Source of the DNA: a virus
Reading direction: 5' to 3' (one strand)
UHGV virus genome: UHGV-0080837
DNA length: 29,296 bases
Below the pieces are notes generated by a model, which saw only the letters and a program-made list of their open reading frames with translations, searched no databases and had not been told where the DNA came from. The translations under genes and the position numbers were made by a program. Position 1 is the stretch's first letter; every line of letters starts with the position of its first letter. Positions 1,192 through 18,231 of this stretch are shown in pieces.

Positions 1192-1264
1192 ATTAAATTT
1201 CTAACACATCTTTTTAGATTAACGCCTTTGCTGTAAAGTACCCTCGCCTATTTAGGAGGGTGCT

Positions 1265-2082: not shown

Positions 2083-2573
2083 TTTACGTAAAAGTGAAAC
2101 GCCTACATCCGGCAGCAAAACTTCCAGCTTATGCCACCTCCGGATCGGCGGCGATGGATTTTGAGGCTGTTGAAATAAAACCATGCGTCGATAGCAATGG
2201 TGCAATTTCCTCAAGCTGGTGGGTGTATACCGGACTGGCTATGGAGATCCCGCCCGGCTGGTGTCTGAAACTCTATCCGCGATCAGGATTGGGCTGCAAA
2301 AAACATACTCGCCTGGCTAACTGCGTAGGAATTATCGACTCCGATTATCGCGGCGAAATCATGGCAAAACTGATTACTGATCCCGGCGGGGAAGGCGTTT
2401 GTCTCAAGCCTGGAATGGCTGTCATGCAAGGAATTTTTGAGCGTGTTGAACAAGTCTCACTAGTCGAGGTTGAGGAACTCAACGAAACGGAGCGTGGTGC
2501 TGGTGGCTTTGGTAGCACATCGGAAGGCCACTTTGAAATTAAGCGTTCACCGCTTCAGTACGAAAAGTTATAA
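2079..2573 (+). CDS. dut: dUTP diphosphatase (trimeric dUTPase)
   Basis: 164-aa ORF with dUTPase motifs: RSGLG, IIDSDYRGEI, and the C-terminal motif-5-like ERGAGGFGSTS. Confidence 0.85.
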   Translation: MIYVKVKRLHPAAKLPAYATSGSAAMDFEAVEIKPCVDSNGAISSSWWVYTGLAMEIPPGWCLKLYPRSGLGCKKHTRLANCVGIIDSDYRGEIMAKLITDPGGEGVCLKPGMAVMQGIFERVEQVSLVEVEELNETERGAGGFGSTSEGHFEIKRSPLQYEKL

Positions 2574-2587
2574 GCAGAGAAAAGACT

Positions 2588-3265
2588 ATGAATAACAAGG
2601 CAACGAAAGAGCTTTTTAAGCTCCTTCCCAAATACAAAGCTCAAAAAAACGTTAGTGCATCGAAAATCAAAAATGTTGTTATTTTCGGAGTAACTGATAC
2701 CCCACTTTGGGGCAGCATCGAACTCGTTGAACCTAAAGGGGCAACAGTTTGTGTTGACGCAATGTTTTTACAAAAACACCGACCAAAAACTGGCGGGTAT
2801 CTGATCGTTTATGAAAACGGTTATCTGTTCTATGCCCCGGAGAAACCATTTGAGGAACGCTATGGCCTGGTTAACGACGCCTCCAAAAATGGAACCACGG
2901 TCATCATTACGGATGACAACGGCGTGATGATTAATCTTACCGGGAGCGTAACTATTTCTGCTGGTGGCATCACCACCCAGCAAGAAGAAATCGACCTTGA
3001 AGCAGCCGACTTTTCTGACGCGCTGATGTGGCTGAAGGATGGCAAGAAAGTTGCCCGGCGCGGGTGGAACGGCGAAAACCAATTCTGCTGGCTGGTTCCT
3101 GAAGGACAGTACCCGGCACGAATGGAAGCCATTAAGGGATATTTCCCCGGCGATCTCGTTCCGTATGGTGCTTATTTCGCCTTAAAAAATGCACAAGGTG
3201 TAGTTGTTCCGTGGGTGCCTTCTGTAGGCGACTTACTGGCATGTGACTGGTTTGTAGTGGAGTGA
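2588..3265 (+). CDS. two-domain protein: unknown N-terminal domain plus C-terminal DUF2829 (Tad2-like) domain
   Basis: 225-aa ORF. C-terminal ~85 aa (FSDALMWLKDGKKVARRGWNGEN ... WLVPEG ... VVPWVPSVGDLLACDWFVVE) matches the DUF2829 pattern as I recall it; the N-terminal ~140 aa are unassigned. Confidence 0.6.
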   Translation: MNNKATKELFKLLPKYKAQKNVSASKIKNVVIFGVTDTPLWGSIELVEPKGATVCVDAMFLQKHRPKTGGYLIVYENGYLFYAPEKPFEERYGLVNDASKNGTTVIITDDNGVMINLTGSVTISAGGITTQQEEIDLEAADFSDALMWLKDGKKVARRGWNGENQFCWLVPEGQYPARMEAIKGYFPGDLVPYGAYFALKNAQGVVVPWVPSVGDLLACDWFVVE

Positions 3266-3271
3266 TTTAAC

Positions 3272-4039
3272 GTGGAAAATACTAAAGCAATTCAATACCG
3301 CTTGCGTAATGGCCTGCTGGTGGCTGTTAACGCCGACATGTCACTGCCGTTTGACACGATTGAACGTACTATCATGACGTATCTCGGCTTTAATGAAGAG
3401 CTGAATGAAGAGCATGGCGTAGCTATATGGAGTGATGCAGAAAGCGGCGTTCATCGTTACATCACCGCCAGGGGCAAAGACTACTCTCTGGAAGAACTGT
3501 TTACCCTTGCACAGTCTTTCGAATGTGTAGCATTAGACATGTTTAATGATCCTGCTATAGCGCAACGACTTATACGCGAGCTTGGGCTGTCGGTTACACC
3601 AATTATCTTTAAGAATGGCAGCCTGACTGGCACATGGCGCGTAGAACGCATCTCAAACTACCTTCCATATAACCGACAGTTAAATGGAGTAATCTCCGGC
3701 GTTAATCAGCCCGTAGCGTGTGAAAATGTAAACCTGGTTGCCGCTGTTTTGGCAACCGCATGTCGTGTTATCGGTTTGGCTAAACAGGCTTTTATTCATT
3801 TCCCAAATGGTGCAGAAGGTAGCGCAGAGATTATCGCGTGTGATTTCGAATTTACCTGGATGCTACGCGAATATCTGGACCAAACAGTGTTCCGCGCCGA
3901 AGAACTGGATATGTATATCACGTCAACGATTCCTGATGATGTGCGTGCTGAAGCAATCGCTACGGCCAGGGCGAAATGCCGTGCGGCGATTGCAGAACAG
4001 GCCAAAGAAGAAGTTAAGGAAGTGGCAGATGGCGACTAA
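3272..4039 (+). CDS. hypothetical protein
   Basis: 255-aa ORF with GTG start at 3272, acidic C-terminus; same strand and tight spacing with neighbours. Confidence 0.5.
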   Translation: MENTKAIQYRLRNGLLVAVNADMSLPFDTIERTIMTYLGFNEELNEEHGVAIWSDAESGVHRYITARGKDYSLEELFTLAQSFECVALDMFNDPAIAQRLIRELGLSVTPIIFKNGSLTGTWRVERISNYLPYNRQLNGVISGVNQPVACENVNLVAAVLATACRVIGLAKQAFIHFPNGAEGSAEIIACDFEFTWMLREYLDQTVFRAEELDMYITSTIPDDVRAEAIATARAKCRAAIAEQAKEEVKEVADGD

Positions 4040-12527: not shown

Positions 12528-12558
12528 GTTAGAAAACTAAAATCAATATTCTAACGCA
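12528..12558. promoter_or_regulatory. operator dyad with leftward promoter-like elements (internal promoter)
   Basis: TGTTAGAAAA (12528-12537) and TTCTAACGCA (12549-12558) in inverted orientation. Minus-strand TTGATT and an AT-rich -10-like hexamer overlap it. Confidence 0.4.
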
Positions 12559-14075: not shown

Positions 14076-14506
14076 TGGCTGCCTCCTTTGCGAAGCTGGT
14101 CGGCGAACAAACGTACACTAGACGCTTCACTGCGTAGAAACTTAACGGCATAATCAAAACCACCTCGTTCTGCGTCGTCTGCTCCGTTGTCGAGGTTATC
14201 TGCGTACATCTCTACCCCCTGCGCCCGTACTTCAGCCAGGAAAGCATCGGTGGCTGGAATGGGCTTTTGTGGTGATATAGCAATACGTATTGTCTCAAGG
14301 TCTGGATCTGTTTCCGCTGTTGGCACCTTGATATAACCCATCTGCACCCCATTCATGATGAACCTGCGACAGTCATCACATATCGCCTTTAGCCCTGCAT
14401 TCTCCGCCGCCAGCGCCGCGCGCTCTTTCTCAAGACGGAAAATTTCCGTCACATACTGAGCGTTACGCTCCGCCAGTTGCTCTGGCGTTAAACCTTCAGA
14501 CTTCAT
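14072..14506 (-). CDS. Ea22-like phage protein (paralog 1)
   Basis: ATG at 14506 preceded by AAGGAGAG; C-terminus ATDAFLAEVRAQGVEM ... QLRKGGSQ shared with the paralog at 10602..11189. Confidence 0.55.
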   Translation of the reverse strand: MKSEGLTPEQLAERNAQYVTEIFRLEKERAALAAENAGLKAICDDCRRFIMNGVQMGYIKVPTAETDPDLETIRIAISPQKPIPATDAFLAEVRAQGVEMYADNLDNGADDAERGGFDYAVKFLRSEASSVRLFADQLRKGGSQ

Positions 14507-14813
14507 GCACTCTCCTTTCGAAATAAACGTACTGATTAATCATGCCCAGGGGCATTTCGAGTTTTTCTGCGATCTCACGGCGGGGAACACCGCACTGATG
14601 AAGCTGCCGCGCCAGCTCTATATCGCTCTGCCGATATTTGGCTGACTGGTGAAAGTCACCTTTCAGAATCATTCTGATCCCCAGCTCTCGCGCTTTAGTC
14701 CTGACGGCATCACCGGTACGACCGATCAGCTTCCCGATACTCTCGACCGTCATAGTTCCGGCGCACTGGCGGAGTATCATGATTTCTGCCCTTCCCCATC
14801 CCCGCCAGCTCAC
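14496..14813 (-). CDS. putative helix-turn-helix DNA-binding protein
   Basis: 105-aa ORF with two HTH-like segments (TVESIGKLIGRTGDAVRTKARELGI and VPRREIAEKLEMPLGMI). Family not identified. Confidence 0.4.
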   Translation of the reverse strand: MSWRGWGRAEIMILRQCAGTMTVESIGKLIGRTGDAVRTKARELGIRMILKGDFHQSAKYRQSDIELARQLHQCGVPRREIAEKLEMPLGMINQYVYFERRVHEV

Positions 14814-15433
14814 GCCGACATCCTCTGAGACATAAACTCCACAAAACGAACTGCATCTTCAGAAACAACGCCGCATGACTTCAGATAATTCATTGCGTCA
14901 TTAGGTAGCGGATTAGTTGGTTCGGCATTTGCCAGGGATTGAGATAAACGCGTGATTAATTTGACCATTCTCCGCTGTCGGAGGTTGTATCCTTCGGCTA
15001 AAGACAGGTAACTGGAAAGGGTATTGCTTAAGCGAGCGCGAAGCTGATCCGTGCCGTGACATTCAATAGCAACATCACGTAACGCATCGACCAGTTCGCG
15101 GTAAATATGCGCTGCCATTCTGCAATCTGTGTCAGATGGCGCTTCATAAATTACCGTCAGCTCCAGTTTTTCAGCCAGGGCGTGTTCTGCTCGTGCTCCT
15201 GCGGACGCTTCCCAGCCCTTAAGCAGATAGATAGCATCAGCAGAACGCACCATTGCCAGGCAAATATCCATGTATTCACTCTGACAAAGGCCACCAGGTA
15301 ACACAGCTGGATTCAGAACGATATGCCCTTCAGACATCAGCTCGCTCGCTTTCGCATTAAACGCCGCACGGTTGTAGTCTGGATAACCAGTCATCGGCCC
15401 CGCGATGTAAATTTTCAAAACACGTTTCACCAT
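14810..15433 (-). CDS. DUF4406 / nucleoside 2-deoxyribosyltransferase-like protein
   Basis: N-terminus VLKIYIAGPMTGYPDYNRAAF ... VLNP ... LLKGWEASAGARAEHALA matches the DUF4406 pattern. Start taken at the ATG at 15433, which overlaps the stop of a small upstream ORF (TGATG). Confidence 0.55.
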   Translation of the reverse strand: MVKRVLKIYIAGPMTGYPDYNRAAFNAKASELMSEGHIVLNPAVLPGGLCQSEYMDICLAMVRSADAIYLLKGWEASAGARAEHALAEKLELTVIYEAPSDTDCRMAAHIYRELVDALRDVAIECHGTDQLRARLSNTLSSYLSLAEGYNLRQRRMVKLITRLSQSLANAEPTNPLPNDAMNYLKSCGVVSEDAVRFVEFMSQRMSA

Positions 15434-15588
15434 CAAAATTTCCCCAAAATCGTGACGCAAAACATAAGCACTGCGAAAAGCTCAATACCAAGCTCAAGTA
15501 GCGCCAGCGCCCCGAAAAACAACACATAGAACAGGCCAATCTCATTCACAGATGGCTGGTGGATCGCACTTAAAGCTATAAGCATCAT
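15433..15588 (-). CDS. small hydrophobic leader peptide (about 50 aa)
   Basis: Hand-translated: MMLIALSAIHQPSVNEIGLFYVLFFGALALLELGIELFAVLMFCVTILGKF. GGAGG precedes the ATGATG at 15583-15588; first ORF of the leftward operon. Confidence 0.3.
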   Translation of the reverse strand: MMLIALSAIHQPSVNEIGLFYVLFFGALALLELGIELFAVLMFCVTILGKF

Positions 15589-15613
15589 GTCCTCCAAACA
15601 GTTATCAGGAATG

Positions 15614-15658
15614 ATATTAATGTTTTGTGTTAGAAAATCAATTTTGAATATCTAACCA
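15614..15658. promoter_or_regulatory. divergent promoter region with operator dyad
   Basis: Dyad TGTTAGAAAA (15628-15637) and TATCTAACCA (15649-15658). On the minus strand TTGATT, a 16-nt spacer and TAATAT form a good sigma70 promoter with a half-site in the spacer; a rightward TTGAAT -35 overlaps the other half-site. Confidence 0.5.
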
Positions 15659-15705
15659 TTTAGATCAATCATAGAAAAATAGCTGAAAAGTAAGAGGCAG
15701 CCATC

Positions 15706-16284
15706 ATGCAGAAACAGAGCTATTGGGAGAAACAGAGACAAAAAGCCATGCAAAAATTGGCTGACCCAGCCTGGCGAGAGGAACAAAGGGCAAAGCGCCT
15801 TCAACAAGCTCAACGCCAGCAGCAACGAGCGAGAGAAAAAGCCGCATCGCCTGAATATCGGCAAAAGAGAATTGAAAAAGCAAAGCAATATGACCAGCGG
15901 AGAAAAGAGAAAGCTGTATCCACTCCGTCCAAAAAAACACGCACGTCACGCGGCCTGAAGGGCAGATCACTCACAGCCGATGAACGCCGGATACAGACCG
16001 CTATCGGTACTCTCCCCTGCATTGCCTGCCATATTCACGGGCAACATAGCCCAGTGGTATCCCTGCACCATATCTTCGGGAGAACGGCAGAGAACGCGCA
16101 TAAATATGTCCTCCCTTTGTGTAAATGGCACCACCAGTACGCAGCGCCAGCCGAGGTCCGAGAACAATATCCCTGGCTGGTCCCTGTTCATGCTGACGGA
16201 AAAATAGGCGGAAAAGCAGATTTCATGCGGCACAATGCCGATGAAATGGCGTTGTATCAGATGGCGATTGAATTGATAAATTAG
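15706..16284 (+). CDS. ref: Ref-like HNH-family nuclease (P1 recombination enhancement function type)
   Basis: 192-aa ORF with a long, highly charged K/R/Q/E-rich N-terminal region followed by a Cys/His core (CIACHIHG ... SLHHI ... LPLCKWHH), matching the known architecture of P1 Ref. AAGAGG RBS. Confidence 0.55.
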   Translation: MQKQSYWEKQRQKAMQKLADPAWREEQRAKRLQQAQRQQQRAREKAASPEYRQKRIEKAKQYDQRRKEKAVSTPSKKTRTSRGLKGRSLTADERRIQTAIGTLPCIACHIHGQHSPVVSLHHIFGRTAENAHKYVLPLCKWHHQYAAPAEVREQYPWLVPVHADGKIGGKADFMRHNADEMALYQMAIELIN

Positions 16285-16296
16285 TTTTCTAACATT
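16273..16296 (+). promoter_or_regulatory. promoter-like element with operator half-site, start of the immI-like region
   Basis: TTGATA then AATTAGTTTTCTAACAT; the 15-mer TTAGTTTTCTAACAT is shared with the minus-strand promoter at 12528-12546. Confidence 0.4.
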
Positions 16297-16615
16297 TTAA
16301 GTTGAATTGAAAAATGCTCCGATGTACATTCACTACCCATTGGCACACCGGTCAACTTTTTGAGACAAACTATTTAGTTTTTCGTATGATTGCCGCCGCC
16401 ATACCAATGGCGGTGCAATATAGGTGGCTGAAAAGCCCCCGTTGACTCACGGTGTTCCAGCCTTTATTGCGCCGCCACCAGACCGTGGAACAGTCGATGG
16501 CGGCTCCGAAAGCAAGGAGTCACTACACTATGAACAGCTACTGTCTTTTCCCATCACTCGTTGTCCGCCACTCACGCGATAATCTGCATTCTTTACTCGC
16601 GCTGGGGGTGTCAAA

Positions 16616-16783
16616 ATGACCGTTCGCTACCTCAACTTTCAAATCCAGAACATCACTGGCGGTTGCTATGACTGGTTTGTCACTCTCGGAAAAGAAGTGA
16701 TCACCGGGAAGCTGGATGAAGTGAAAGCTAAAGCAATGGCCTACGCCTGCAAGCAAGCCAGGAAGAAATCCGCCAAAGCATAA
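16616..16783 (+). CDS. small hypothetical protein (55 aa)
   Basis: Hand-translated MTVRYLNFQIQNITGGCYDWFVTLGKEVITGKLDEVKAKAMAYACKQARKKSAKA; GGGGTG 6 nt upstream of the ATG. Below the ORF-track cutoff. Confidence 0.3.
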   Translation: MTVRYLNFQIQNITGGCYDWFVTLGKEVITGKLDEVKAKAMAYACKQARKKSAKA

Positions 16784-16888
16784 AATACTGACTGTTGCGC
16801 CCTGACATTATCGTGGGGTATATTTCTACGGCACCTTAGAAAAACGGGTGCCGGGATTGGTCTCCCGGTAATGTCAAAGGCGACACAT

Positions 16889-16916
16889 AGACGCCACAAG
16901 CGTCTTTTTTGTTGTC
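16889..16916 (+). terminator. hairpin plus T-run (attenuator or terminator-like) inside the immI-like leader
   Basis: AGACGC CACAA GCGTCT followed by TTTTTTGTT at 16889-16913. Confidence 0.35.
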
Positions 16917-16924
16917 GGCGCACT

Positions 16925-17010
16925 CGCACACCTATCAATGGTGGGCTGTGTGGTGGCTTCTTCGGAAGCGCCGGTTCCCTTTGACGCCGGTAAGACCAAC
17001 TCCACACAGT
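16925..17010 (+). ncRNA. c4: candidate c4-like antisense RNA (P1 immI type); boundaries approximate
   Basis: Contains CCCTTTGAC (16977-16985) and AGACCAA (16994-17000), antiparallel complements of GTCAAAGG and TTGGTCT, which occur twice downstream/upstream as direct repeats. Also a GCUUC-UUCG-GAAGC tetraloop hairpin (16956-16969). Confidence 0.4.
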
Positions 17011-17074
17011 CCACCGCCAGTAAGATTGGTCTCTTCGGCGGTGGTATCGTTCACTGTCAAAGGAGGCTGCCAAT

Positions 17075-17290
17075 ATGGCTACTATCCCTACCCCAACTCA
17101 TTCTGAATTTATCTGGCGTTTCTATTCCTGCCAAAAACACCTGTATATCTGCGTCATGGCTGCAACCGAAGCAGAAGCTCGTTCATACCTTCCTGAAGAA
17201 CCCTGCATTTTTGCCGCACGCTTCACTCTTGATGCGATGGAGATCCTCAATTACTGGAATCTGCCAATGAACTGCGTGGAGGTGCACTGA
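17075..17290 (+). CDS. icd: Icd-like small protein (host cell division inhibitor family)
   Basis: 71-aa ORF; pattern IWRFYS ... AATEAEARSYLPEEPCIFAARF resembles Icd-like proteins. Its RBS AGGAGG (17061-17066) is part of the b2 antisense target; its stop overlaps the ant ATG (TGATG at 17288-17292). Confidence 0.5.
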   Translation: MATIPTPTHSEFIWRFYSCQKHLYICVMAATEAEARSYLPEEPCIFAARFTLDAMEILNYWNLPMNCVEVH

Positions 17291-18231
17291 TGAATCTGTC
17301 CATCTCTCAAAAAGCGACAATGACCAGTATTGAGATCGCGGAACTGGTAGGTAAGCGTCATGATAATGTGAAGCGTACCATTGAAGTATTAACTAAAGGT
17401 GGTGTCATTCAATTTCCTCAAATTGAGGAAATTGAAAATAAACAATCAGTTGGCCCTCGTCGATTTTCCAAGGCTTACATCTTTGAAGGCGAACAAGGAA
17501 AACGAGACAGCATTATTGTCGTCGCGCAGCTCTCTCCCGAATTCACCGCCCGGCTGGTGGACCGCTGGCGCGAACTGGAGAGTGCCAAAGTACAGTTAAA
17601 ATCAAAAGCCGAAATTCTGGCTGAAATGGCGCAAATGCATCTTGAGCATGAACGCCGGATCAACGCCGTTAATGCCCAGGTAGCCGAAGTATCGGCACAA
17701 GTGTCCAAAGTCGCTGAAACCGTCGAGCAAATAAAGAAAGGCAATATGCCGGAAGGCTACATTGGCTACCGCCAGTTGGCGGCGAAATGTGGCCTGACTG
17801 AAGCCAAATGTCGCAACCTGGTTAACGCTTACCGGATTCCCACCGATACACATGAGTTTTTGACCCCCGATGGCTTGCTTGCGCGACGCTCCATTGTGGC
17901 TCTGGCCCCCTTCCGGAAAGCCTTCAAGCAGGTTATGTCGGAGGCAGAACCACGCAACAAACGCTGGTATCATCCCAAGATGGGGCTGTTTCAGGCAATC
18001 CATCATCCTTTACCGGAAATCCCAAAAGATAATCTGTCACTGCATACCGCCAGAGAGAAGATCAGAAGTGGATATGCAACGGTATGCCGTCGCGCCTCAT
18101 GGTCTGAAGGTGTATGGGTATGGCCCGAAGGCGGATCAAGGAAGCACTGGCGCACTATCCGGGATGGGAAAATCCATGCTATTGATTTAGCGCCAGAGGA
18201 TATGGTTGCTATGGACTGGATTGTTAGTTAA
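17290..18231 (+). CDS. ant: antirepressor (Rha/Ant N-terminal domain) with C-terminal DUF2829-like domain
   Basis: N-terminus TSIEIAELVGKRHDNVKRTIEVL is a typical Rha/Ant-type HTH start. C-terminal ~60 aa (SGYATVCRRASW ... WVWPEGG ... IHAIDLAPEDMVAMDWIVS) parallel the DUF2829 domain at 2588..3265. Confidence 0.6.
   Translation: MNLSISQKATMTSIEIAELVGKRHDNVKRTIEVLTKGGVIQFPQIEEIENKQSVGPRRFSKAYIFEGEQGKRDSIIVVAQLSPEFTARLVDRWRELESAKVQLKSKAEILAEMAQMHLEHERRINAVNAQVAEVSAQVSKVAETVEQIKKGNMPEGYIGYRQLAAKCGLTEAKCRNLVNAYRIPTDTHEFLTPDGLLARRSIVALAPFRKAFKQVMSEAEPRNKRWYHPKMGLFQAIHHPLPEIPKDNLSLHTAREKIRSGYATVCRRASWSEGVWVWPEGGSRKHWRTIRDGKIHAIDLAPEDMVAMDWIVS

Follow-up and report, generated by a model that had tools for sequence, protein, structure and literature searches.

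The closest described counterpart of the locus considered here is found in phage D6, in which orf88 and orf89 (YP_009914765 / YP_009914766) form the same pair of genes in the same order, with the same TGATG overlap and the same divergent Ref neighbour. The second gene of the pair encodes a DUF4406 protein. A literature search on this domain (PF14359, IPR025518) found no biochemical, genetic or functional data and no published function, in keeping with the initial annotation of the locus, which had described its role in prophages as unknown. The best sequence and Foldseek matches to DUF4406 are the nucleoside 2'-deoxyribosyltransferases (NDTs; PF05014; T. brucei 2a0k, L. leichmannii 1f8x). NDTs belong to a separate Pfam family, carry an Asp six residues before the nucleophilic Glu where DUF4406 has a Ser, and possess a C-terminal third of the fold which is absent from DUF4406. 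The nucleotide N-glycosidases DNPH1 (Rcl), MilB, BlsM and BcmB also differ from DUF4406, whose core is about 35–60 residues shorter and has no conserved general acid and no helical extension that gives a second phosphate ligand. In DNPH1, S98 binds the phosphate (S97 in MilB), E104 is the nucleophile, the catalytic triad includes the general-acid Asp D80 on helix 2, and the helical extension donates S128' to the active site of the neighbouring subunit (PMC10603095).

The regulation of the locus has its nearest parallel in the C1 system of phage P1. In both, an operator covers the promoter of a Ref gene, and an asymmetric motif of ~17 bp with a TCTAA core recurs at c1, lpa, dmt, ref and immI-type loci. 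In P1 the C1 repressor governs the counterparts ref, dmt and kilA, with binding and derepression shown for P1 ref (PMC4713147). The D6-type operator at orf88/ref is a bivalent (palindromic) form of the asymmetric motif, and in D6-like elements it also faces a leftward operon, whereas P1 has no such operon at that place.

Host element and gene layout

The window, by which we mean the whole 29,296-nucleotide stretch analysed (UHGV-0080837), is 91% identical to phage D6 at the nucleotide level and 95–97% identical to plasmids of ~90 kb. Judged by these comparisons it is a D6-like, P1-family E. coli phage-plasmid. About 110–119 PLSDB plasmids carry the module of peptide and DUF4406 gene. Among 5426 complete E. 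coli genomes it is present in 81, plasmid-borne in every case. Both genes are annotated in phage D6, as orf88 and orf89, while RefSeq mostly leaves out the small membrane-protein gene. The finding is genuine but ordinary: two catalogued genes open the early operon of a D6-type phage-plasmid. The genes and domains are arranged as follows.

14496–14813, minus strand: next cistron, a 105-aa HTH-like protein (phrog_323 match; D6 orf90)
14810–15142, minus strand: C-terminal extension of the DUF4406 protein, predicted helical, residues 98–207 plus stop codon; a lineage-specific add-on
15143–15433, minus strand: DUF4406 core domain, residues 1–97 of the 207-aa protein
15433–15585, minus strand: small ORF, 50 aa plus stop, MLIALSAIHQPSVNEIGLFYVLFFGALALLELGIELFAVLMFCVTILGKF (D6 orf88)
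15591–15595, minus strand: GGAGG, the Shine-Dalgarno sequence 5 nt ahead of the small ORF's ATG at 15585
15706–16284, plus strand: Ref-like RecA-dependent nuclease, the divergent neighbour (Pfam RecA_dep_nuc, E 8.5e-35; D6 orf87)

The initial annotation had placed a 50-aa hydrophobic ORF, led by GGAGG and overlapping the DUF4406 gene through TGATG, on the minus strand, and each of these elements lies at the position it gave. Two ATGs could open the small ORF, at 15588 (51 aa) and at 15585 (50 aa); the latter is conserved among relatives and is also the start in the D6 annotation. The peptide stop TGA (15435–15433) and the DUF4406 ATG (15433–15431) have one base in common, and the DUF4406 gene then runs from 15433 to its stop at 14812–14810, which is overlapped in turn by the GTG start of the HTH-like cistron (GTGA). 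The small ORF is the first cistron past a divergent promoter/operator region common to it and the Ref gene. The leftward gene string further includes a metallophosphoesterase gene and a DUF968 gene, and the isrK/C4/icd/ant region lies downstream of ref.

A conserved small gene with a predicted membrane helix

Positions 15247–16865 form a mosaic block ~98% identical to D6, with one synonymous difference, and the product of the small ORF is identical to that of D6 orf88 (100% at the amino acid level), so the coding test was moved to more distant plasmids. Relatives at 70–75% DNA identity keep the length and frame of the small ORF, its Shine-Dalgarno sequence (AGGAGG or GGGAGA in relatives L002–L005) and the TGATG overlap. 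Across these relatives dN/dS is 0.07–0.41, and the other frames are closed. The product also matches phrog_8890, a small phage protein, over residues 2–51 (model 1–50 of 50, E 2.5e-35). These signs of conservation and selection mark the small ORF as a genuine coding gene under selection, coupled to DUF4406 as had been proposed.

The peptide has a strongly hydrophobic composition (GRAVY 1.64), with a net charge of −2 and one basic residue, and an AF2 single-sequence model has a helix over residues 13–49 (pLDDT 90–98). From hydropathy and this helix the peptide is predicted to form a single long transmembrane helix; a two-helix hairpin was considered for its 33-residue hydrophobic stretch and set aside, as the model shows one continuous helix. 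The centre of the protein holds an invariant 12-residue stretch, LALxELGIELFA, in which the ELGIELFA core carries two invariant glutamates.

Two other accounts of the small ORF deserve consideration. The first is that it encodes a membrane-damaging peptide of type I-toxin or Kil type, acting independently of DUF4406. Its size, extreme hydrophobicity and single helix fit such peptides, as does an expression that would begin only once the repressor is lifted. However, the charge of −2 with a single basic residue is unlike most Hok, Ldr and TisB-type toxins, the gene is tightly coupled within an operon rather than forming a separate locus, no Pfam or NCBIfam model matches the ORF, and Rfam detects no RNA gene and no cognate antisense RNA over 15433–15600. 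A Hok-Gef-like identity was rejected on the last two results, and a toxin of this broader kind is unlikely. The second account, also improbable, holds that the ORF is a mere translated leader which brings ribosomes to the DUF4406 start and yields a functionless peptide. The conserved TGATG overlap would suit such a leader, as would the last codons (GGG/GAG AAA TTT), which double as a Shine-Dalgarno-like element for DUF4406, and a peptide family that is tiny and restricted to D6-like elements. Against this stand a dN/dS well below 1 and the position of the invariant stretch, mid-ORF and distant from the junction. At about 50% amino acid identity the peptide moreover retains its length and hydrophobicity, which a pure leader would not need.

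The small hydrophobic ORF was also considered as a general companion of DUF4406, which other contexts contradict. In N15, gp56 is an acidic, soluble protein, the ORF upstream of DUF4406 in Kpn74 is lipoprotein-like, the DUF4406 domain of a Proteus phage bears an N-terminal fusion, and in lambdoid prophages DUF977 lies upstream. The peptide was not found in any non-D6 DUF4406 context examined.

The DUF4406 core and its likely chemistry

Pfam DUF4406 (PF14359) covers residues 7–96 of the protein (model 2–91 of 91, E 5.7e-34) with a score of 116.8 bits, against a curated gathering threshold of 22, which upholds the domain assignment of the initial annotation. NCBIfam gave no match for the protein. 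The core has the flavodoxin-like fold of NDT, MilB and DNPH1, which supports the proposed relation to nucleoside deoxyribosyltransferases. Alignment to the T. brucei NDT matches the segment KIYIAGP, which includes Y9, and the nucleophilic Glu, E83 corresponding to the Glu of GTAFEVG in 2a0k; the nucleophile Glu on helix 3 and the Tyr on strand 1 are both present and invariant. All residues of the signature are found in the window protein (Y9, G12-P13-M14, G16, N21, F25, Y54, W74, S77-x-G79-A80-x2-E83). The family signature Y-I-A-G-P-M-T-G...N-x-x-A-F...Y...W-x-x-S-x-G-A-x-x-E is invariant in alignments which take in members from N15, Klebsiella, Proteus, Mycobacterium and Diaphorobacter, with Y9, S77, G79 and E83 invariant when actinophage members are included, and the core is under strong purifying selection.

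The spacing S77-x-G79-x3-E83, with Ser six residues before the nucleophile, is that of S98...E104 in DNPH1, and Ser77 would thus correspond to the phosphate-binding Ser of DNPH1, a match of motif spacing and not of residue-level superposition. Profile comparison with human DNPH1 was not significant and aligned the N-terminal motif alone. In the window protein, E53 and D56 lie at the beginning of helix 2, and the family columns vary (E/Q/H/D/N/G at 53, D/Q/R/C/A at 56), so that in the alignments the general-acid Asp of the NDT/DNPH1 triad is without a conserved counterpart in DUF4406. Strand 4 closes the conserved core at about residue 97, and the C-terminal active-site segment is lacking.

Genome context bears on the substrate. 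The collections searched contain DUF4406 in 645 phage records and 364 plasmids. In Kalah2 gp161 it is joined to a MazG/PRA-PH domain; it also adjoins a dATP/dGTP diphosphohydrolase N-domain protein, appears in BFVD as fusions to dATP/dGTP diphosphohydrolase, and in other phages lies inside replication and nucleotide-metabolism cassettes. Because DUF4406 is fused to or beside dNTP pyrophosphohydrolases, a dNMP/NMP N-glycosidase is the best guess for its activity. Some mycobacteriophage homologues are labelled 'deoxycytidylate deaminase', which looks like a mis-annotation, as Elite2014 gp110 holds only DUF4406.

A different reading is that DUF4406 is not an enzyme of nucleotide metabolism and instead binds or cleaves an immune signal, or depletes a host nucleotide, in anti-defence or host takeover, with the peptide as a possible partner. 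Such a role had been proposed from the first position of the pair in the operon, but has no support here: PADLOC found no match for either protein, the literature searched offered nothing relevant to this family, and the peptide is no general partner of DUF4406. That the nucleophile Glu is invariant and strongly selected argues for catalysis, and the cassettes in which DUF4406 occurs elsewhere also count against this reading, which we regard as rather improbable. That DUF4406 is a genuine NDT, swapping bases between free deoxynucleosides, is suggested by the family name and often assigned by annotators, but is very unlikely given an invariant Ser, as in DNPH1/MilB, in place of the Asp at −6 from the nucleophile (DCGTAFE, 2a0k), the missing C-terminal part of the fold with no match of the window protein to PF05014, and fusion partners which yield nucleoside monophosphates and not nucleosides. 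Of the relation to deoxyribosyltransferases first put forward, the fold is retained, and the conserved residues point to nucleotide (5'-phosphate) N-glycosidases such as DNPH1 and MilB rather than to nucleoside transferases.

A variable C-terminal tail

The protein is a mosaic. It is 77% identical to D6 orf89 (207 aa vs 203 aa), with a breakpoint within the gene near 15246, and its C-terminal two-thirds represent a different allele from that of D6. The tail consists of a mobile module of ~40 aa (HxYRELVNxLRDxAxxYxGxxQLRE), common to DUF551-containing and other prophage proteins, and a tail segment of ~60 aa. It is predicted as low-confidence helices unrelated to the DNPH1 extension, and its relatives form only 21 clusters among 1.84 billion representatives. 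The S. dysenteriae relative L005 has no tail and encodes the 97-aa core alone, a comparison which shows that the tail is dispensable.

Operator and promoters

The intergenic region between Ref and orf88, and two further sites in the window, hold the following elements.

12528–12540, minus strand: operator-like half-site TTAGTTTTCTAAC, between the metallophosphoesterase and DUF968 genes in the leftward string; D6 equivalent at 80725
15614–15641, minus strand: candidate sigma-70 leftward promoter, TTGATT (15641–15636), 16 nt, TAATAT (15619–15614); 8/12
15629–15656, no strand: 28-bp near-palindrome GTTAGAAAATCAA-TT-TTGAATATCTAAC, an inverted repeat and probable bivalent C1-type operator
15644–15672, plus strand: candidate divergent ref promoter, TTGAAT (15644–15649), 17 nt, AATCAT (15667–15672); 8/12
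16281–16293, plus strand: operator-like half-site where ref ends, ahead of the isrK/C4/icd/ant region

The palindrome spans the −35 boxes of both back-to-back divergent candidate promoters. It occurs once in the window at ≤3 mismatches (0 expected) and is perfect in relatives L002–L005; in L004 and L005 a change in one arm is matched by a compensating change in the other. The half-site TTnnTTTTCTAACA has about 12 copies in D6, where its 8-mer core would be expected 3.4 times, with copies ahead of c1 (two), lpa, icd/ant-repL, hrdC-dmt and ref. The D6-type motif derived de novo is TTAnTTTTCTAACAyA, and the P1 C1 operator consensus ATTGCTCTAATAAATTT has no match in the window at ≤3 mismatches. 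As the half-site recurs at the D6 counterparts of P1 genes under C1 control, the motif evidence supports control of the operon head by a C1-type repressor. Together with the palindrome it supports the repressor-controlled operon of the initial annotation, and from its distribution the repressor would bind at 15629–15656.

The leftward promoter had also been called strong. Both candidate promoters were picked by eye from the sequence and are putative as to use; each reaches 8/12, a moderate match to consensus, and a consensus scan of the intergenic region found no site at ≥9/12, which does not bear out that description. L002 (TTGATT-17-GATACT) and L004 (TTGAAT-16-TGgTAGTCT) have comparable leftward elements in the corresponding position.

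A model for the pair

The explanation we favour, with a probability of roughly 0.5 as a whole, is that of a repressor-controlled early pair formed by a membrane helix and a nucleotide-editing N-glycosidase. It builds on the observed gene structure, conservation, selection, fold, conserved residues and operator-motif recurrence, from which we infer repressor binding, promoter use, membrane insertion, catalysis and substrate. The peptide and DUF4406 genes would be the two nearest the promoter in an early (lytic-phase) operon, most likely silenced in the plasmid-prophage state by a C1-type repressor sitting on the 28-bp bivalent operator over the −35 boxes of the leftward and ref promoters. Translation of the first cistron would give a 50-residue protein with one long membrane helix, and its stop, overlapping the DUF4406 start, would couple translation of the two. 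The DUF4406 core would then bind a (deoxy)nucleoside 5'-monophosphate and cleave its N-glycosidic bond, the most likely activity; Glu83 would form the covalent intermediate, helped by Tyr9, and Ser77 would hold the phosphate. In this capacity the protein may act as a nucleotide-pool editor downstream of dNTP pyrophosphohydrolases.

In a far more speculative extension, which we consider highly doubtful, the peptide would, in the first minutes that follow derepression, tether the minimal N-glycosidase to the inner membrane or activate it there, and the enzyme would destroy a specific nucleotide, be it a modified dNMP or an immune signal derived from a nucleotide. If true, this would add a new mechanism of anti-defence or host takeover, one based on the NDT fold.

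Significance

For the window itself the gain is modest: the early operon of the D6 type can be annotated more cleanly, with the small membrane-protein gene, a probable bivalent operator and the limits of the orf89 domains added. Phage D6 offers a tractable genetic system for the function of the pair. DUF4406 is among the more widespread uncharacterised phage domains, and if it is a dNMP/NMP N-glycosidase, hundreds of 'nucleoside deoxyribosyltransferase' annotations would need correction, and phages would gain a nucleotide-pool editing step downstream of MazG-type enzymes.

A coupled gene pair on a D6-like element

The initial annotation had described a small hydrophobic ORF coupled to a DUF4406 gene, and the minus strand of 14810-15597 bears this out:

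15595-15591, minus strand: GGAGG, Shine-Dalgarno sequence of the small ORF
15588 and 15585, minus strand: two in-frame ATG codons of the small ORF
15435-15433, minus strand: TGA stop of the small ORF, whose product is very hydrophobic
15433-15431, minus strand: ATG of the DUF4406 gene (207 codons, ending at 14810)
14813-14496, minus strand: next gene, with a GTG start overlapping the DUF4406 stop (GTGA)

In the TGATG overlap the A of the small-ORF TGA is the A of the DUF4406 ATG, and the GTGA overlap indicates that the chain of coupled cistrons continues past the DUF4406 gene. In the 207-aa protein, Pfam DUF4406 covers residues 7-96 (E 5.7e-34, 116.8 bits, cut-off 22).

Over 14400-16400 the window shares 91% identity with Escherichia phage D6, a plasmid prophage of the P1 family, and its first 25 kb is 95-97% identical to ~90-kb non-mobilizable plasmids of E. 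coli, Shigella and Salmonella. The D6 record annotates both genes, the small ORF as orf88 (hypothetical; 50 aa) and the DUF4406 gene as orf89, 'similar to the N-terminal half of N15 gp57'. They diverge from a Ref-like RecA-dependent nuclease gene (ref), and a series of mosaic accessory genes comes after them (HTH protein, Ead/Ea22-like proteins, DUF4752 protein, metallophosphoesterase (ppp) and DUF968/pdcB-like protein), a layout identical to that of the window. The module is carried by 81 of 5426 complete E. coli genomes, on plasmids in every case, and by about 110-119 PLSDB plasmids; near-identical proteins (98% identity) are in NCBI. Both genes are already known (D6 orf88/orf89, PF14359, phrog_8890/5781), and the pair belongs to a known, uncharacterised kind. 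The 50-aa ORF is unannotated in most PGAP/RefSeq D6-like plasmids, though conserved and under purifying selection.

The small ORF

D6 is uninformative on the coding status of the small ORF, being ~98% identical to the window across the mosaic block 15247-16865. Diverged relatives keep the ORF at 50 or 51 codons and retain a Shine-Dalgarno sequence 5 nt before the ATG equivalent to 15585, the TGATG junction and an invariant LALxELGIELFA core, while the remaining two frames contain many stops. Pairwise dN/dS is 0.07-0.41, versus 0.05-0.35 for the DUF4406 core in the same sequence pairs. By these comparative measures the small ORF is a real gene under selection. A mere coupling leader, which the overlap itself might suggest, is an unlikely description of a product with such conservation.

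The product has a GRAVY of 1.64 and a net charge of -2, its 19-residue hydropathy windows exceed 1.6 from about residue 12 through the C-terminus, and AF2 models residues 13-49 as a single continuous helix (pLDDT 90-98). These properties might also suit an independent membrane toxin, although the ORF is coupled to the DUF4406 gene wherever it was compared, and we consider this unlikely too. Only 4 clusters among 5.8 billion proteins match, every one from D6-like elements; the ORF has a PHROG family of its own (8890), its product has no match in Pfam, NCBIfam or PADLOC, and no Rfam RNA overlaps it. As a general DUF4406 companion it was rejected: unrelated genes lie upstream in N15, Klebsiella phage Kpn74, a Proteus phage and lambdoid prophages.

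A probable shared control region

The small ORF and ref are separated by 117 bp, which contain:

15629-15656: 28-bp near-palindrome, found by inverted-repeat detection
15641-15636 and 15619-15614, minus strand: TTGATT and TAATAT, candidate leftward promoter
15644-15649 and 15667-15672, plus strand: TTGAAT and AATCAT, candidate rightward promoter (ref)

The near-palindrome occurs once only in the window. It is perfect in relatives at 70-75% DNA identity (E. coli, E. marmotae, E. fergusonii, S. dysenteriae), two of which show a matched change in both arms, as would be expected where a protein binds as a dimer or bivalently. Each arm holds an outward-facing TTGAAT/TTGATT hexamer with a 4/6 -10 match 16-17 nt beyond. 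Both candidate promoters score 8/12 to consensus, under the promoter-scan threshold, so the initial description of the leftward promoter as strong finds no support.

The D6-type half-site TTAnTTTTCTAACAyA has about a dozen copies in the D6 genome (8-mer core: 12 observed vs 3.4 expected), each with the same extended flank. They lie upstream of c1 (two copies), upstream of lpa, between icd/ant and repL, in a second palindrome upstream of hrdC-dmt, at ref and upstream of the pdcB-like gene. In P1, c1 and lpa are C1-controlled. P1 ref, dmt and kilA are lytic genes under the C1 repressor (PMC4713147). The P1 C1 operator consensus is absent from the window at 3 or fewer mismatches, which fits a related repressor of different specificity. 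We infer a bivalent C1-type operator, common to the leftward operon and ref, that occludes both -35 boxes, and the earlier proposal of a repressor-controlled operon is to this extent supported by the operator-like site and its recurrence at D6 operon heads.

Further half-sites in the window lie at 16281-16293 (plus; where ref ends, upstream of isrK, C4 and icd/ant), 12528-12540 (minus; between the metallophosphoesterase and DUF968 genes), 1193-1205 (plus) and about 27065 (plus). Rfam places isrK Hfq-binding RNA at 16831-16910 (60 bits) and C4 antisense RNA at 16934-17021 (75 bits), both plus strand; an icd-like ORF (17075-17290) and a Rha/Ant-like gene (17290-18231) lie immediately downstream. 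Together they make up an ImmI-type immunity region some 1.3 kb to the right of the gene pair.

The DUF4406 core

AF2 gives a confident core for residues 1-100 (pLDDT about 90; 4 strands and 3 helices), which Foldseek matches in the PDB, at probability 1.0, to nucleoside 2'-deoxyribosyltransferases (NDTs) and the nucleotide N-glycosidases DNPH1, MilB and BlsM. The sole PDB sequence match is T. brucei NDT, with KIYIAGP on KIYIAGP and E83 on the catalytic Glu. Alignments reaching actinophage members leave Y9, G12, P13, M14, G16, N21, F25, Y54, W74, S77, G79, A80 and E83 invariant. The S77-x-G-x3-E83 spacing equals that of S98 and E104 in DNPH1, whereas NDTs have Asp at the Ser77 position. DNPH1 uses S98 to bind the 5'-phosphate and E104 to form the covalent intermediate, and MilB has the same Ser (PMC10603095).

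Family alignments lack a conserved acidic residue in helix 2, and the core ends short of the DNPH1 segment that reaches into the partner's active site; both count against a textbook mechanism. The protein could instead be a nucleotide binder or an anti-defence factor, which the invariance of E83 makes quite improbable in our view; for the anti-defence role suggested initially, this analysis found no positive evidence.

Genomic partners of DUF4406

The domain occurs in 645 phage records and 364 plasmids. Mycobacterium phage Kalah2 carries it as a fusion with a MazG/PRA-PH-type pyrophosphohydrolase, beside a PAPS-reductase-like gene, a dATP/dGTP-diphosphohydrolase-N-domain gene and a metallophosphoesterase; BFVD holds fusions with dATP/dGTP diphosphohydrolase domains, and in an E. 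fergusonii D6-like plasmid PAPS-reductase and metallophosphoesterase genes follow the DUF4406 gene. These partners yield nucleoside monophosphates or act on DNA precursors, and a monophosphate-directed N-glycosidase therefore fits better than a nucleoside transferase. The proposed relation to NDTs holds for the fold and the aligned KIYIAGP and Glu, but S77 and this context favour DNPH1/MilB-like logic, and a true NDT is improbable.

Two very distant phage lineages (Kalah2 locus L012, 625-3324; E. fergusonii plasmid locus L004, 2744-4881) share the combination of DUF4406, PAPS-reductase-like and metallophosphoesterase genes, which may form a recurring nucleotide-metabolism cassette. DUF4406 genes also repeatedly adjoin, and often overlap, C5- or N6-DNA methyltransferase genes (L009, N15, 2504-3812; L018, 5001-6475; L010, 1-2812), as in N15 gp57-gp58, a P2-like Diaphorobacter prophage, Klebsiella phage Kpn74 and Acidovorax phage Alfacinha1. 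In lambdoid prophages the gene comes after the replication genes. In Mycobacterium phage Elite2014 (L013), 1435-1809 is labelled 'deoxycytidylate deaminase', as are several cluster relatives; only DUF4406 is detected, and the label is probably a mis-annotation.

A mosaic tail

The helical tail is modelled at low confidence (pLDDT 35-63), and its relatives form only 21 clusters among 1.84 billion representatives. Its first part is a ~40-aa helical module, HxYRELVNxLRDxAxxYxGxxQLRE (14990-15120, residues about 104-145), found in many enterobacterial prophage proteins that are not otherwise related, DUF551 proteins among them (P0126-P0140; twice in P0126), and it behaves as a mobile protein segment. 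The ~60-aa end is also found on small proteins with different N-termini. Compared with the window, the S. dysenteriae relative lacks residues 98-207, leaving a DUF4406 protein of 97 aa; on that plasmid (L005, 2744-3678) after the core-only gene comes an unrelated Cys-rich ORF of 214 aa without a Pfam match. Judged from such sequence comparisons, the tail is a mosaic add-on and could plausibly serve for oligomerisation or as an adaptor. A sharp recombination breakpoint with D6 lies inside the DUF4406 gene near 15246 (identity is about 98% for 15247-16865 but about 75-80% between 15246 and about 14827), so the N-terminus of the catalytic core and the remainder of the protein differ in recent history.

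Implications

Our main reading, to which we give a probability of about 0.5, is an early operon that would be held off by a C1-type repressor, its first product a lineage-specific membrane protein with a single predicted helix and its second a putative minimal DNPH1/MilB-like nucleotide N-glycosidase working through Glu83. What is added here is evidence that the small ORF is a real, selected gene for a predicted membrane protein that RefSeq usually leaves out, together with a probable bivalent operator, the domain dissection of the DUF4406 protein and a residue-level argument that places DUF4406 closer in logic to DNPH1/MilB than to NDT.
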